47,642 nucleotides of DNA, taken from the NCBI GenBank assembly GCA_002753335.1, contig PEAD01000024.1, positions 1 to 47,642 of the forward strand, written 5' to 3'. The position numbers are program-made. Position 1 is the stretch's first letter, and every line of letters begins with the position of its first letter. Shown here one piece after another: positions 6,001 to 12,000 of the stretch. The stretch is from Nitrospirae bacterium MYbin3. Its GTDB lineage: Bacteria > Nitrospirota > Thermodesulfovibrionia > Thermodesulfovibrionales > Dissulfurispiraceae.

Positions 6001-9000
6001 CCGCCTGCTCAGAACTTGCAACAGTCGGTATTACATAATCATCCAGCCCTGCAGCACTAAGATTTTCAGAAAAACGTTTAAAAGTGGTTCCTTCACTTAT
6101 CAGTTCTTTTTCGTTCTTATGTTCTAAAGATCCGCTAAAATGATCAATTGCTGTAATCTTCTCTCTGCCAGAATTTTTCGAGCCTTCGGCAAGCCAACAT
6201 GTTGACCGCCCCATAAAACTTCCTATTTCAACAACCGATCCTGCTTGGGGGCCTTTAGAAGCAAGTGCCATAAGAATATACCCCTCCACACTATGAAGAA
6301 ACCCCTGAATATTGCAAAATCTATCTCTAAAAAAATCATAGCGCTCCTCAAATTCATCAAATAATCGTGCTAGAGGATAGCGTTCCTTAGAAATACCAAA
6401 TGCTCTCATAAAAGACTCTTTCGCACCGGATAAATCACCTGTTTCCTCAAGAACCTTACCCAGATTTGTAAAAATCTCAGCTGATGCATTATTGCAAGAA
6501 ACAGCCTTGCGATAGGCACTAATAGCAAAATCAATCATGCTAAGGCGATAAAATACATTCCCTTGGTTATTATATAAATCGGCATTGTCAGGTGCTATGT
6601 TGATAGCTTTTGCAATACAAACAAGAGCTGCTTCATGGTTGTTCTTTTTCGAATAAAGTGCAGAGAGATTGTTTAAAGCGGCTGTGTGATTAGGATTTGT
6701 CTCAAGCAACTTCTCATAACAAAGTATAGCTTTTTCGGTATTCCCATTTTTTTGAAAAAACATTGCTAAATTGAAATAAGCATCGGTATTTAGAGGGTTC
6801 TTGTTGACTTCTTGTATTAGATGTTTCATTTCGTCAGATTTTTTCAAAAGTTCTTGTTTATAATACGATTCTTAGTTGCATGAATCAATCTTATTTTTTC
6901 TGGTTTCGCTAAAACCGCGACTCATTAAACTTTAGCACACATTCTCCGATAAATAAAACAACCAGACATAGCAAAAAAGATTAACATTTTTAATGTATTA
7001 TGATATACTTGTACAAGTCCTAAAAGGAGGTGAACAAAAGAAAGGACTGAAAATTAGGCGCTGAAACAATCAGCATAAAATAATAACCCCTCAGCAAGAA
7101 TGCTGAGATAAAATCCCAGAAAAGGAGAAACAACATGAACGAGATAGCATTAACATCCTCGATGAGACAAAACCTCATCAATCTGCAGGGAACAGCAAAC
7201 AACTTATCAACGGTTCAAAACAGACTGGCATCAGGCAAAAAGGTTAACACCGCTCTTGATGATCCGGTGAACTTCTTTGCTGCTCAGGCAAATATGTCAA
7301 GGGCTGCTGACCTTGCGCTCCGCAAAGATTCTATGGGCGAAGCGATTCAGACAGCAAAAGCTGCTGATTCAGCAATAACCGCGATTTCATCGCTCCTTGA
7401 TCAGGCAAAGTCTATCGCCACCACTTCGCTCTCAACTTCAGACACGAATAGCCGAGCAAGTTATTCGACGCAGTTTAACGTAGTCATGAGTCAGATTTTG
7501 GCGGTAGCCAATGATGCCAGCTATAAAGGCACAAACTTCCTTAAAGCCGCCACATTGACCGTAAAGTTCAATGAAGATGGCACTTCTTCTCTTGCTATGA
7601 CAGGCTTTAGAGGCGACTCAATAGCCAACCTTACTCTTGGTATGGTTGGTACAACTGTAACAACCTCTTATGGCAGTTCTACAGGTGTGGGTATCTGGTC
7701 AGATGCTACCTGCGGTGGATCAAATATTCAAGGCGCACTCGACGCAATCAACACCGCAACCACAAACCTCAGAGACCAGGCAAAGTCTATCGCAACTAAC
7801 CTTAACGTTATTACAGTGCGTTCAGAATTCGCAAAGAACATGATCGACACTCTAAAAACCGGTGCAGATAATTTGACACTGGCTGACATGAATGAAGAGG
7901 GCGCTAACATGCTTATGCTTCAGACCCGTCAGTCTCTGGGCATCACTTCACTGAGCCTTGCTTCACAGGCAGCCCAGTCCGTATTAAGAATGTTCTAAAA
8001 AAGCATCATGCAATGCGGAAGAGAATATTCTCTTCCGCATTGTCTCTCAAACAAATCAATCTAAATCTAAAATGTCATTAAAACTAAATCTTAAACCATA
8101 CGAACGGCTGATTGTTGGAGGAGCTGTAATCGCCAATGGTAGTCACAAAACCGAACTTTTTATAGAAAACAAAGCACTTGTTCTTCGTGAAAAAGATATA
8201 ATGACCACGCAACATGCTGATACGCATTGCAAAAAACTTTACCTTGCAATTCAGCTTATGTACATAGATGAGAAAAACTTGACAGAGTACTATGACGTTT
8301 ACTGGAAGCTTGTTCGCGAGCTTATAAATGCTGCGCCAAGGCTTATCTCAATTATAGACAGTATGAATGAACATATTATTTCTGGCAGATATTATCCTGC
8401 TTTAAAACTTGCAAAAGAATTAATACATTTTGAAGAGGAGGCATTAAATGGAATCAAAGGATCCGTTGTCAGAGAACAACAATATGTCGGGGCGTGAACT
8501 AGAGGCTTCTGTTCTAGAAAAAGCAGCAGCAATACTCAAAAACTGCAAAGAAAATTGGAATGAGCAAGGATTGGAAGCTAAGCTTAATGATGCTTTAGGG
8601 TTCAACAACCTCATATGGAGCATTTTAAAAAGTGAAGTTTCTAAGGGCACCACACCCCTTCCTGTTGAAACAAGGCAAAATCTGTTAAAGCTTGCAGATT
8701 TTATAGAAAAACGCACAGAAGATATTAGGAAGAATCCATCAGCAGATAAAGTAGATATCTTAATTAATATTAATTTAAACATAGCGTCGGGATTGAAAGG
8801 AGCCGTTTAATATAACCACAACTGAATGAGCAACGGTGAGCTTCTAAGGAATGCTTTAGAACATCATAAAAACGGTGATTTTGAAAAAGCGATAGACATC
8901 TACACTAATCTGCTTAAGAAAAACACCGACCCCCAGATATTAAATTTTCTCGCATTGTCATTTAAGAGCCTAGGAGACTATGATTCCGCCTTAACGCATT

Positions 9001-12000
9001 TAAACAGAGCGATAGAGCTATCACCCAACTTTGTAGAAGCTATCGCAAATTCTGGCATTATAATGAACGCCATAGGCCATACTGATAAAGCAATTAAAGC
9101 TTATCAAAAGGCAATTAGTTTGTCACCTAATTTACCCGCTCCTTATTTCAACCTAGCAAAACTGCTCCAAAGCAAGTCAGATTATGACAAAGCGATTGTA
9201 TGCTACAAAAAGGCTCTTGAGCTTGATCCATCATTGCATGATGCGTACCCCAATCTTGCTTATATTTATGCCGCAAAAAAATCACCTATTAAAGCAATCG
9301 GGTTTTATATAAAGGCCATTGAACTTTTGCCAACAAATGCGGAATTGTACAACAATCTTGGAGTTGTTCTATTTGATAACGGCAATATAAATGAATCTAT
9401 AGAATGCTATAGGAAGGCCATTGAAATTGACCCCAATTATGCCAGCGCTTATTACAACCTCGGCAACTCGCTGCGAGCAATTAAGGATATAGAAGAAGCG
9501 ATAGAATGCTACAAACACGCCATAACTAACGACAACTCGCTTTCATATGCACATTGGAATTTAGCCATACTGCTTTTGCTTACAGGGAGATTTGATGAGG
9601 GATGGAAAGAATACGAGTGGCGATGGGAATTGAAAGATTATATTACAAACCGCAACTTTATCCAGCCGCTATGGGATGGAAGAGATATAAAGGGCCAAAC
9701 TATTTTGCTTCACGCAGAGCAGGGGCTTGGGGATGCGATACAATTTATCAGATATATTCCTTCTATAGCAGAAAAAGGAGTCCGAATAATAATTGAATGC
9801 CAAAAAGAACTTGTTTCGCTTTTCAGTTCTAGTGAGAACATAGAAAGCATTACAGTACAAGGAGAAAGGCTTCCGCCATTCGATATTCATTGTCCATTCC
9901 TAACCATTCCATATATTTTCAAAACAACCAATGAGAACATACCCACAAAAGTTCCGTACCTATCAGCAGACAATTCTTTAATACAAAAATGGTCTGCATT
10001 AGCAGGAATAGACAAAAATAGATTTAACATAGGCATCGTTTGGGCAGGCAATCCCAAAAACGCAAATGATAAAGTACGTTCCTTGTCTTTAGACTTATTC
10101 GCTCCACTTTCGGAGCTTAAAAATATTCAGTTTTACAGCCTGCAGAAAGGTGAGGCCTCAGCTCAGATAAACACACGTTCTTTGGCAATTAAAGATTTAA
10201 CTTCAGAGATACAAGACTTTTCGGATACTGCAGCATTAATCATGAACTTAGACCTGATTATATCGGTTGACACTGCTGTGGCTCACCTTGCAGGAGCTCT
10301 TGCAAAACCGGTCTGGCTACTCATACCCCCAATACCTGACTGGAGATGGCAGCTTAATAAAGACGATAGCCCATGGTATCCTACGATGAAATTGTTTCGT
10401 GGATATAAAGAGGGAGAATGGGCTGACGTTGTTGAAAAAATAAAGAATGAACTTTCATCTCGACAAAAATGATTTGTAGCAGTTCTCGATATTATGCGTG
10501 AATTTATAGACATCCATCAATGGAGAATCAATTAAATTATTGCGTAATGTTTTACGAAGTATCTTAAGCCTCTCCCTATCATTAGCGAGTTCAACCGCAA
10601 TATTTATATATTCATCAACATCCTTTGCAATAAATTCTTTAAGGCCAGCATTCGAAAGCAGGCTCACCCCAACCCTTGACCTGTGATCGTTGCCCTCTAA
10701 GGTTATAACAGGGACTCCCATCCATATGGCTTCGCATGTAGTAGTAGTTCCATTGTATGGAAAAGTGTCCAACGCTATATCAACCTGTGAGTATATTTTG
10801 AGATGAGAAGTAGTATCATTTTCGAATGTGTTTATTTTAAGCCTTTCTTTTGTTATTCCTTTAGAATCAAACAAAGAAATTATTTTGCCTTTAAGGGTTG
10901 GGTCATCAATATACCTAGCCTTAAGCAAAATTTTAGCGTCAGGGACTCTCTTTAAAATTTCGGACCACACATCTATAACATAATCATTTATCTTAAGCGC
11001 CATGTTAAATGAGCCAAAAACTATATCCATATTACCTGATGCCTCAACATCAGGACTTTTTTTATCCGGAACATAACACAAAAAGCAATCAGGCATCCGT
11101 ACCAGCTTTTCCGTATAATACTGATCGGTCATGCCCTCAGGGTCGGTATAGCTATCAACAATCCTATAATCCATGGTACTCAAACCTGTTGTGTTAGGGT
11201 AACCTATCCAGTGCACCTGTACAGGAGCAGGCTTTCTTAGAAAAACGCTCAGGTTATTTAAGCCTGTATGGCCGGCAAGATCGACTAATATATCTATGCT
11301 ATCACTCCTTATCAGGTTTTCAAGATCGTCATCTTCCATTTTATATATTCCGCGCCAGTTTTCGACCAAATGCTTTATATGTTCGGTTATTTCATCAGAT
11401 ATAAAAGCATTAGAATAGCAAAAAACTTCAAACTCTTTTTTATCATGATTTTTTAGCACAGACTCTATAAAATAACTTACAGAATGCCGCCTAAAATCGG
11501 CCGAGACATAGCCTATTTTAATCCTTCTGCCTTGAGTATCAGGAAGAGATGAGTATTTATTCTGATTTGAATACAGTCTTAAATGTTTCTCATATTTTAA
11601 ATGCTCTCCAAAAATATCCTGCAGCGTAATACCAGTCTTATAATTAGTCAAATATATGATATTGCTCCATACATATGGTGAGTTAGGATTGACTTCAAGG
11701 GCTTTTTTATAAAATCTTTCGGCTGCTTCAAACATTCCCCACTCTCTATAAACATTACCCAAATTATTAAGCGCATCCACATGATGGGGTTCAATATCAA
11801 CTGTTTGCGAAAAAAAGATAAGCGCCTCGCTTAGTTTTCGGAATAAAAAAAATGTAACCCCTAAGTTATATGCAGCTGTTACATGGTTAGGGTTAAGTAG
11901 CAAGACCCTCTTATAACATTCTATTGCGTCATTATATTTATTAAGCGTCTGATACACTAAAGCCATATTAAAAAATATTTCGGCACGCGTTGGTTCCAGC

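Follow-up and report, generated by a model that had tools for sequence, protein, structure and literature searches.

The flagellin locus of Nitrospirae bacterium MYbin3 raises the question of how a flagellar filament is controlled and exported where the flagellin is followed by flbT and flaF, and what became of the FliS and CsrA that sister genera carry. In the window, the whole 47,642-nucleotide stretch of DNA analysed, profile matches show the genes at 7135-10472 to be as the genome-wide survey's note described, a run of flagellin, flbT, flaF and a TPR glycosyltransferase, and the second flaF reported there is also matched:

7135..7998, + strand: flagellin, 287 residues, the sole flagellin found in the genome
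8011..8042, no strand assigned: perfect palindrome, 32 nt long, in the gap separating flagellin from flbT, read from the sequence
8072..8497, + strand: FlbT, predicted translational regulator of flagellin (Pfam PF07378, E 1.8e-40)
8448..8810, + strand: FlaF, flagellin secretion chaperone homologue (PF07309, E 2.5e-25; NF009435 above cut-off)
8826..10472, + strand: protein with TPR repeats and a GT9-type domain, FlmG-like in architecture
23377..39727, - strand: sugar-pathway genes in the same island (NeuB-like synthase, PseG-like, PseC-like, cytidylyltransferase, WbuX/WbuZ-like amidation)
C13:4241-4633: second flaF

The flagellin is single, as claimed, the only other of the two Flagellin_N matches in the genome being the FlgL behind flgK. 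FlbT scores under both NCBIfam equivalog cut-offs (126.8 vs 153 and 97.2 vs 125), and the palindrome behind the flagellin gene is likely, from its sequence, to be a terminator or an mRNA-stabilising hairpin. Elsewhere the genome has FliD (contig C59), FliW (C34) and FliA (C13). Purifying selection acts on every gene of the module and also on fliD and fliW (dN/dS 0.05-0.16), with values against the congener of 0.12 for flagellin and 0.095 for FlaF.

Profile searches uphold the survey's report that fliS and csrA are missing, neither having a match in this genome (93.7% complete) or in the congener (99%). The mutual exclusion it proposed within the family likewise stands: among 68 family genomes, in which FlaF was found in 11, FliS in 44, CsrA in 47 and FliW in 49, FliS or CsrA occurs in none of the 11 with FlaF, and in a phylum sample of 301 genomes FliS is found in 148 but in none of the 25 FlaF genomes. 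Exclusion of CsrA is not universal outside the phylum, as 10 of 50 genomes from several phyla bearing the same flagellin type have CsrA, and three have FliS. FlbT and FlaF both lie within 10 kb at 57 of 76 related loci. In a Caulobacter control genome FlaF and FlbT were matched, and FliS, CsrA, FliW and FliD were not. We consider it probable that a cassette under a sigma28-type promoter, passed among non-alphaproteobacterial anaerobes, replaced the family's flagellin-FliS-CsrA set on a flagellum that is otherwise native.

The region upstream of the flagellin gene bears on how such a cassette would be controlled:

6926..6952, + strand: sigma28 (FliA)-type promoter, TAAA-N15-TCCGATAA, matched exactly once in the window and never in 100 shuffles
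7022..7033, + strand: upstream AGGAGGTG element of the leader, present in many native and FlaF-type leaders
7090..7107, + strand: leader hairpin with a 7-bp stem and AGAA in the loop, in both MFE and centroid folds; candidate FlbT site 1
7115..7127, + strand: second AGAA, immediately 5' of the Shine-Dalgarno GGAG; candidate FlbT site 2

Searched with the sigma28 consensus, 48 of 72 flagellins of this type have a similar upstream site (5.75% of shuffles); a sigma54 promoter was rejected, its site being present at only 1 of the 72. The leader retains the hairpin-plus-ribosome-site layout of native CsrA-controlled leaders, with AGAA in place of GGA, and the AGAA hairpin occupies the position of their GGA-loop hairpin. 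By patterns defined by eye on the very sequences later counted, 69 of 90 FlaF-type leaders have the AGAA hairpin and 29 of 30 native leaders the GGA one, while the ribosome-site AGAA occurs in 77/90 and 0/30, respectively, and the native ribosome-site GGA pattern in none of the 90. Among the genome's 2457 ORFs only the flagellin is preceded by the full AGAA element, and no Rfam family was found across 6850-8100. Stems of the FlaF-type hairpins show several pair types per position and the loop remains AGAA. Of 73 leaders with both sites, 68 have the same 4-mer at each, including four AGGA/AGGA and one AGTA/AGTA, as is expected if one protein reads both. AGGA stands at one or both sites in nine FlaF-type leaders, and no FlbT residue tracking AGGA or AGTA leaders was visible by eye.

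The AGAA hairpin and ribosome-site AGAA together are probably a binding site for FlbT. An unlikely alternative accepts the replacement and takes the AGAA sites for disarmed CsrA sites, for features of stability or ribosome loading, or for sites of FlaF or another protein. The loop is indeed one base away from the CsrA hexaloop CANGGANG, a GGA-to-AAA change is described as abolishing CsrA control in C. jejuni (PMC4894983), and the element is mostly missing from the seven alphaproteobacterial leaders checked (hairpin in two, ribosome-site copy in none; FlbT matches adjoin those of loci L226 and L232). Against this, AGAA persists at both sites in several phyla while the stems vary, and most of the genomes concerned lack CsrA (40/50); the agreement of the paired 4-mers is also what a single reader would lead one to expect.

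If FlbT is that reader, control would run parallel to the CsrA-FliW-FliS switch described for Bacillus subtilis and Campylobacter jejuni (PMC4894983, PMC8306008), in which CsrA acts at two GGA sites of the flagellin leader according to the first of these accounts. Sister genera carry that switch, the leader layout is alike and FliW is conserved here; the locus differs in that CsrA and FliS were not found, GGA has become AGAA and the flagellin is of another type. By analogy with Caulobacter work, FliA would give rise to a flagellin mRNA whose leader measures about 180 nt, and FlbT on the hairpin and the ribosome-side AGAA would keep translation low, in the way that CsrA acts through a pair of GGA sites in sister genera. 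FlaF would then bring flagellin to the native FlhA after hook completion, export relieving the repression. As GGA gives way to AGAA exactly where CsrA yields to FlbT, the leader names a testable operator, and sister genera that differ in the module offer a natural comparison. A further suggestion of the pattern is that one and the same export gate can work with either FlaF or FliS.

How the cassette reached the family is indicated by its relatives. The closest flagellins are 44-80% identical, the cassette being spread across Nitrospirota, Desulfobacterota and Ignavibacteria, and in trees of flagellin and FlbT the copies of this genome lie among those of Nitrospirota and Desulfobacterota. All trees are quick trees with SH-aLRT support only (given in brackets below), and they do not fix the direction of change. 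FlhA is 67-74% identical to that of most other-genus family members, FliS or FlaF users alike, compared to 53-54% for five outside FlaF-type genomes; judged by sequence, FlhA and FliA are native, and the cassette would sit on an otherwise native flagellum. Convergent adaptation of FlhA was rejected, no column conserved in FliS users being altered in all three FlaF genera; g1 and g5 alone share two conservative changes, and the region we take to be the chaperone cleft is alike in FliS and FlaF genomes. The three FlaF genera (g1, g5 and g8) are not one clade (AU p=5.7e-5), and the starred branches force three changes, so at least two replacements in the family are likely, with g1 and g5 sharing one cassette lineage and g8 having another. 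The species tree does not reject a single clade of g1 and g5 (p=0.057), and the flagellin tree does not reject one of all three genera (p=0.053); g1 and g5 come together in trees of flagellin (94), FliD (99) and FlhA (89), with g8 separate.

Repeated transfer would be unnecessary if the cassette were old in the order and the family ancestor had both filament systems, of which each genus lost one. Consistent with this, the FlbT copies of g1 and g5 fall with others labelled Thermodesulfovibrionales (86-88), FlaF is found in three further families of the order, and genomes carrying both gene kinds exist (G112, and G093 and G098 with fliS). However, FliS is present in 15 of the family's 24 genera and many separate losses would be required; the closest flagellin from outside g1 and g5 is a Syntrophales copy (97), and two g8 FlbT proteins group with a Syntrophobacterales copy (83). 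The native FliD and FlhA trees also conflict with the species tree, indicating that flagellar genes move within the family. We regard such an ancestor as unlikely too, slightly more so than the other readings of AGAA.

Direct acquisition from an alphaproteobacterium, as implied by the survey's 'alphaproteobacterial' label, is very improbable, the label being half right. The best NCBIfam models for the flagellin are PRK12688 and PRK14708, which we take to be alphaproteobacterial, and in the flagellin tree polar-type flagellins of Methylobacterium and Azospirillum form a deeper sister group (100), among 8-9 alphaproteobacterial sequences sampled from genera other than Caulobacter. The description of this flagellin as closest to Caulobacter Flj proteins holds among solved structures, where Caulobacter flagellins are the best matches (FljK, E 1.6e-15), but far closer flagellins are non-alphaproteobacterial. 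Best identities to alphaproteobacterial proteins are lower than those to others outside the genus (47 vs 69% for flagellin, 37 vs 58% for FlbT, 36 vs 62% for FlaF), only 2 of the 76 nearest loci carry an Alphaproteobacteria label, and four annotated alphaproteobacterial plasmid loci have the order flaF-flbT where here it is flbT-flaF; the sigma28 type of the promoter here also speaks against such an origin. The Caulobacter crescentus system, for which the secretion chaperone role of FlaF, FlbT-FljJ repression and FlmG are described (PMC7591256), resembles this one in the FlbT and FlaF homologues that adjoin flagellin and in the lack of FliS and CsrA. It differs from the present locus, which has one flagellin, no FljJ-like paralogue, a sigma28-type promoter and a defined two-site AGAA leader, in a genome with FliD, FliW and FliA. 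Transfer among non-alphaproteobacterial anaerobes remains our preferred reading.

That the absences are artefacts of incomplete bins is hardly credible: most genomes are bins, 13 of the 68 show neither FlaF nor FliS and the g8 genomes G023 and G024 show no FlbT, but FliS and CsrA are missing from every one of the 14 genomes in g1, g5 and g8, the 100%-complete, five-contig G027 among them, and in complete or near-complete records such as those of Desulfosarcina variabilis, Geomonas oryzae and Citrifermentans bremense FlbT was matched while FliS and CsrA were not. The pattern suggests that a FlaF/FlbT system can function under sigma28 in cultured anaerobes outside the Alphaproteobacteria (Geomonas, Citrifermentans, Desulfosarcina), in which it is testable. 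Searches of the open-access literature listed no paper whose title or opening of the abstract dealt with the cassette outside Alphaproteobacteria. In a review that names Rhizobiales and Caulobacter for FlbT, the part concerned gives no binding motif and calls the mechanism unresolved; against a role in repression, it records a proposal of Brucella FlbT as an activator (PMC4347634).

The AlphaFold model of FlbT (pLDDT 91.6) joins an N-terminal part of five strands to a four-helix bundle; the CsrA fold has five beta-strands, a conserved Arg following the fifth, and a swapped dimer. In an hhalign run the invariant Arg39 of FlbT falls on CsrA Arg44 (P 0.006, at a probability of only 6%); a second run gave P 0.11, with 12 of 200 shuffles equally good. 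CsrA was not listed in fold searches with FlbT: Foldseek had no match at E<=0.001, and residues 1-48 found none in the Atlas; a wide search was dominated by generic four-helix bundles, FliS among them at an undistinctive Z of 7.9. It is possible, though we think it doubtful, that the cassette represents a second, mobile plug-in filament module in bacteria, in which FlbT would be a diverged CsrA-like reader of AGAA in the same two-site leader, FlaF would take the place of FliS on an unmodified FlhA, and the part of cap or co-repressor would usually fall to a degenerate flagellin, this genus being a hybrid that runs the module with FliD retained and with FliW serving a new partner.

The survey's statement that FliD, FliA and an orphan FliW are kept is true of this genome and narrower among its relatives. 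FliW (89% identical to the congener's, dN/dS 0.052) occurs in 2 of 14 genomes of the three FlaF genera, both of this genus, and FliD (dN/dS 0.079) in two of the three genera. Retention of FliD is an exception, as it was not found in 67 of 69 other genomes searched; diverged as it is, it would cap the filament. A degenerate flagellin paralogue is common in these cassettes and missing from this genome, so the single flagellin would itself serve as co-repressor or sensor. The paralogue was not found in any of five g1 and g5 genomes (one partial match, E 0.02), its genes are preceded by a ribosome-site AGAA in 0 of 36 cases, and its fold has no Foldseek match at E<=0.001, flagellins being among the top weak rows. 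Caulobacter FlaY is described as a FliD analogue (PMC13277936; 10.1101/2024.09.25.614892), and most cassette carriers likewise lack FliD. Their extra gene is in contrast a degenerate flagellin, and as a universal cap substitute it was rejected, three FliD-less genomes (G097, G115 and G117) having only partial matches (E 0.005-0.03).

The 'FlmG/FlbA-type' enzyme of the survey's note has the layout claimed, N-terminal TPR and a C-terminal GT-B domain with a weak GT9 match (E 8.6e-6). The layout is common to thousands of proteins: the TPR-GT9 domain is one of six paralogous copies in this genome, is found in at least 7968 proteins, cyanobacterial ones included, and lies near only 21 of the 76 related loci. 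These features set it apart from the FlmG O-glycosyltransferase as described (PMC7591256; 10.1101/2022.03.25.485807), which it resembles in TPR and GT parts, in adjoining flaF and in the NeuB-type pathway of the island; FlmG is here a label of architecture. The sugar-pathway products score below curated cut-offs (NeuB 275 vs 400, PseI 219 vs 340, PseG 114 vs 154, PseC 364 vs 424). The island genes at 23377..39727 are likely to supply the donor, and a TPR-GT9 enzyme encoded in the island would likely attach a nonulosonate to the flagellin.

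The four genes that the genome-wide survey's note had assigned to this module, flagellin, flbT, flaF and a TPR glycosyltransferase, keep their positions and identities in our analysis, the last as FlmG-like only, and follow a promoter and a leader hairpin:

6926-6952, sigma28-type promoter, TAAA-N15-TCCGATAA, single match in the window (0 in 100 shuffles)
7090-7107, leader hairpin, present in the predicted structure
7135-7998, flagellin
8072-8497, FlbT
8448-8810, FlaF
8826-10472, TPR protein with a C-terminal GT9-type domain

The promoter site was assigned by the sigma28 consensus; such sites lie within 400 nt upstream of 48 of 72 flagellins of the host type (5.75% of shuffles), a sigma54-like site upstream of one of the 72. 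The host genome is a 2.93 Mb bin, 93.7% complete, with the window as its contig C7, and the second flaF reported on C13 is there, together with fli, flh and che genes. An RpoB/RpoC tree places the host's family with a genome labelled Thermodesulfovibrionales, so the host is probably a Nitrospirota member of that type. As the stretches matching C13 and C7 are adjacent in a congener (G062), the two contigs are likely joined, and the second flaF probably lies about 12 kb upstream of the module within the same glycosylation island. On C13, FliO and FliP matches fall in a single 349-aa ORF (L180:2726-3772), possibly a fliO-fliP fusion. In genus g5, one protein of 234-243 aa combines two FlaF domains in tandem (L086:11624-12325 in G005; also G004 and G007), additional to two single FlaF genes.

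The FlaF swap in the family is real and likely repeated. FlaF occurs in 11 of 68 family genomes, in genera g1 (the host's), g5 and g8, and never together with FliS or CsrA, bearing out the mutual exclusion previously proposed; across the 68, FliS is found in 44, CsrA in 47 and FliW in 49, and 13 have neither FlaF nor FliS. Taken together, g1, g5 and g8 comprise 14 genomes: every one lacks FliS and CsrA, and two, both g1, retain FliW. In an evenly drawn phylum sample of 301 genomes, each at least 90% complete, FlaF (25) and FliS (148) never coincide when the two match lists are compared, although these counts, like those for the family, include kin and are non-independent. FlaF has been named a FliS analogue and its co-presence with FlbT noted (PMC13277936); open-access literature searches pairing FlbT with Geobacter, Deltaproteobacteria or Nitrospirota-type names gave no result. 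Among 50 genomes from the best related loci, FliS is found in three and CsrA in ten. Two Nitrospirota-labelled genomes retain fliS (L132:2636-3001; L174:1498-1860), the former divergent from, and adjoining, a FlaF-type flagellin, possibly a swap intermediate. A Desulfobacterales genome, G112 (L167, L173), carries a FlaF-type cassette plus a separate fliD-fliS-csrA set.

In a six-marker species tree (29 of 45 genomes), the FlaF label must change three times, with g8 beside g10 (100) and g5 beside g6 (98). Replacement probably occurred at least twice, because a single clade of FlaF genera is rejected (AU p=5.7e-5) while a g1+g5 clade alone is compatible (p=0.057), and these two genera also group in trees of FlhA (89) and FliD (99). 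The trees do not give the direction, and replacement of the FliS set by the FlaF cassette would be the simpler reading since FliS is present in 15 of 24 genera. FlhA itself is native: the host protein is 67-74% identical to most other family genera, against 53-54% to five outside FlaF-type genomes, and no FlhA change common to all three FlaF genera was found. FlhA of g4, g6, g17, g18 and g21 is 53-56% identical to the rest of the family and groups with another phylum family, likely a second, larger flagellar replacement.

The flagellin retrieved 407 related stretches in GTDB, of which the best 76 (44-80% flagellin identity) are labelled Thermodesulfobacteriota (36), Nitrospirota (16), Bacteroidota (5), Ignavibacteriota (4), Pseudomonadota (3, two of them Alphaproteobacteria), Myxococcota (3) and others or unassigned (9); FlbT and FlaF both lie within 10 kb in 57. 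The flagellin, described as closest to Caulobacter, does have that match at the top of the PDB list, but elsewhere non-alphaproteobacterial copies are closer. Excluding the host genus and including nine alphaproteobacterial plasmid loci, best identities are 47% alphaproteobacterial versus 69% other for flagellin, 37% versus 58% for FlbT and 36% versus 62% for FlaF. In a quick flagellin tree of 56 rows, g1+g5 form a clade (94) whose sister is a Syntrophales copy (97), with g8 separate; non-alphaproteobacterial copies are united with weak support (81), related to Methylobacterium and Azospirillum polar-type flagellins, and alphaproteobacterial lateral-type flagellins fall far outside. The FlbT tree is broadly concordant. 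These identities and trees make a deep alphaproteobacterial link plausible, but not the direct alphaproteobacterial donor implied by the module's earlier name, and the proximate source appears to be non-alphaproteobacterial. Ignavibacteria/Bacteroidota loci and one betaproteobacterial locus (L102, L103, L105, L107, L108, L110, L135) have the order flagellin-flaF-flagellin-X-flbT; in the former, one flagellin leader lacks the hairpin and keeps the ribosome-site AGAA.

The main new point from comparing leaders is an AGAA element. Native FliS/CsrA-type leaders of the family carry a GGA-loop hairpin (29/30) and a TCA-N-GGAGG site (29/30), the known CsrA arrangement (PMC4894983). FlaF-type leaders have the same hairpin and ribosome-site layout, with AGAA instead (loop 69/90, ribosome-site copy 77/90), and the native ribosome site in 0/90. 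The GGA hairpin scores in 13/90 FlaF-type leaders and the AGAA hairpin in 2/30 native ones, the search spanning 130 nt for native leaders and 75 nt for others. With the core AG[AGT]A, 75/90 FlaF-type leaders have a stem of at least four pairs (5.6% of shuffles), with three to six pair types per position, and the two sites pair as AGAA/AGAA (63), AGGA/AGGA (4), AGTA/AGTA (1) or mixed (5). Because the patterns were drawn up after viewing the counted leaders, the native contrast and the genome-wide count, in which the full element precedes one of 2457 host ORFs, the flagellin, are the fairer controls. The element is mostly missing from seven alphaproteobacterial leaders, and Rfam has no match in the leader region. 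FlbT would be the likeliest candidate reader, as it reportedly acts on flagellin leaders by an unresolved mechanism (PMC4347634 and PMC7591256); a possible likeness of its N-terminal 45 residues to CsrA would lie in the pattern of strands and one invariant Arg. With GGA giving way to AGAA, the candidate FlbT target can be put to a direct test. Genome G028 has AGTA at both leader sites (L089:7438-7510), and its FlbT (L089:9341-9760) is the longest branch among non-alphaproteobacterial copies; two alphaproteobacterial MAG leaders (L118, L136) have AGTA close to the ribosome site.

FliD, FliA and an orphan FliW, said to be kept, are indeed all present in the host genome: fliA after flhA-flhF-flhG, fliD by itself with a cytochrome c gene on one side and rnhA on the other, fliW separate from flgL. 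In g1/g5, FliD has about 590 residues and is a diverged orphan, and dN/dS indicates purifying selection on FliD (0.079) and FliW (0.052). Across 80 genomes, FliD was found in 6/6 of g1/g5 and 5/5 FliS-type controls, with no match in 67 of 69 others (8 g8, 50 from related loci, 11 phylum FlaF genomes), the exceptions being G112, where FliS and CsrA also occur, and G098, with a sub-cut-off match. Of 57 loci in which flbT follows a flagellin, 36 have an unannotated ORF, X, of more than 140 aa between the two genes, and four g8 genomes have it there as well. X is a degenerate flagellin: hhalign matches it to flagellin (probability 94.8%, E 5e-8, 210 columns), flagellin clusters rank first in an Atlas feature search, and its profile recovers a recognisable second flagellin (E 1e-53). 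It was not found in five g1/g5 genomes searched, nor in three FliD-less genomes searched, and the latter absence rules it out as simply a cap substitute; it may have a role like that of FljJ, the Caulobacter regulatory flagellin paralogue. The host genus is an unusual hybrid, with FliD and FliW kept and X missing. In the FliS-type genome G020, a second FliD-like gene (L293:1477-2703) is both orphan and diverged. Four dispersed FlaG-like genes occur in the host genome (C36:57886-58284, C1:53814-54239, C46:41780-42313, C34:14790-15113); one adjoins fliW, none fliD or flagellin.

The gene called FlmG/FlbA-type shares FlmG's architecture and position and is FlmG-like in that respect, but this is not specific: at least 7968 of 8000 candidates score for the domain family, six such domains occur in the host genome, and one lies near only 21 of the 76 best related loci. 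The gene is a variable neighbour of the cassette, not one of its constant members. The island has a putative NeuB-type pathway, with matches below curated cut-offs, and several further TPR-fused glycosyl- and methyltransferases. At 10455-14279, convergent with the module, lies the gene for a 1274-aa protein in which a TPR + GT41 (OGT-like) module occurs twice.
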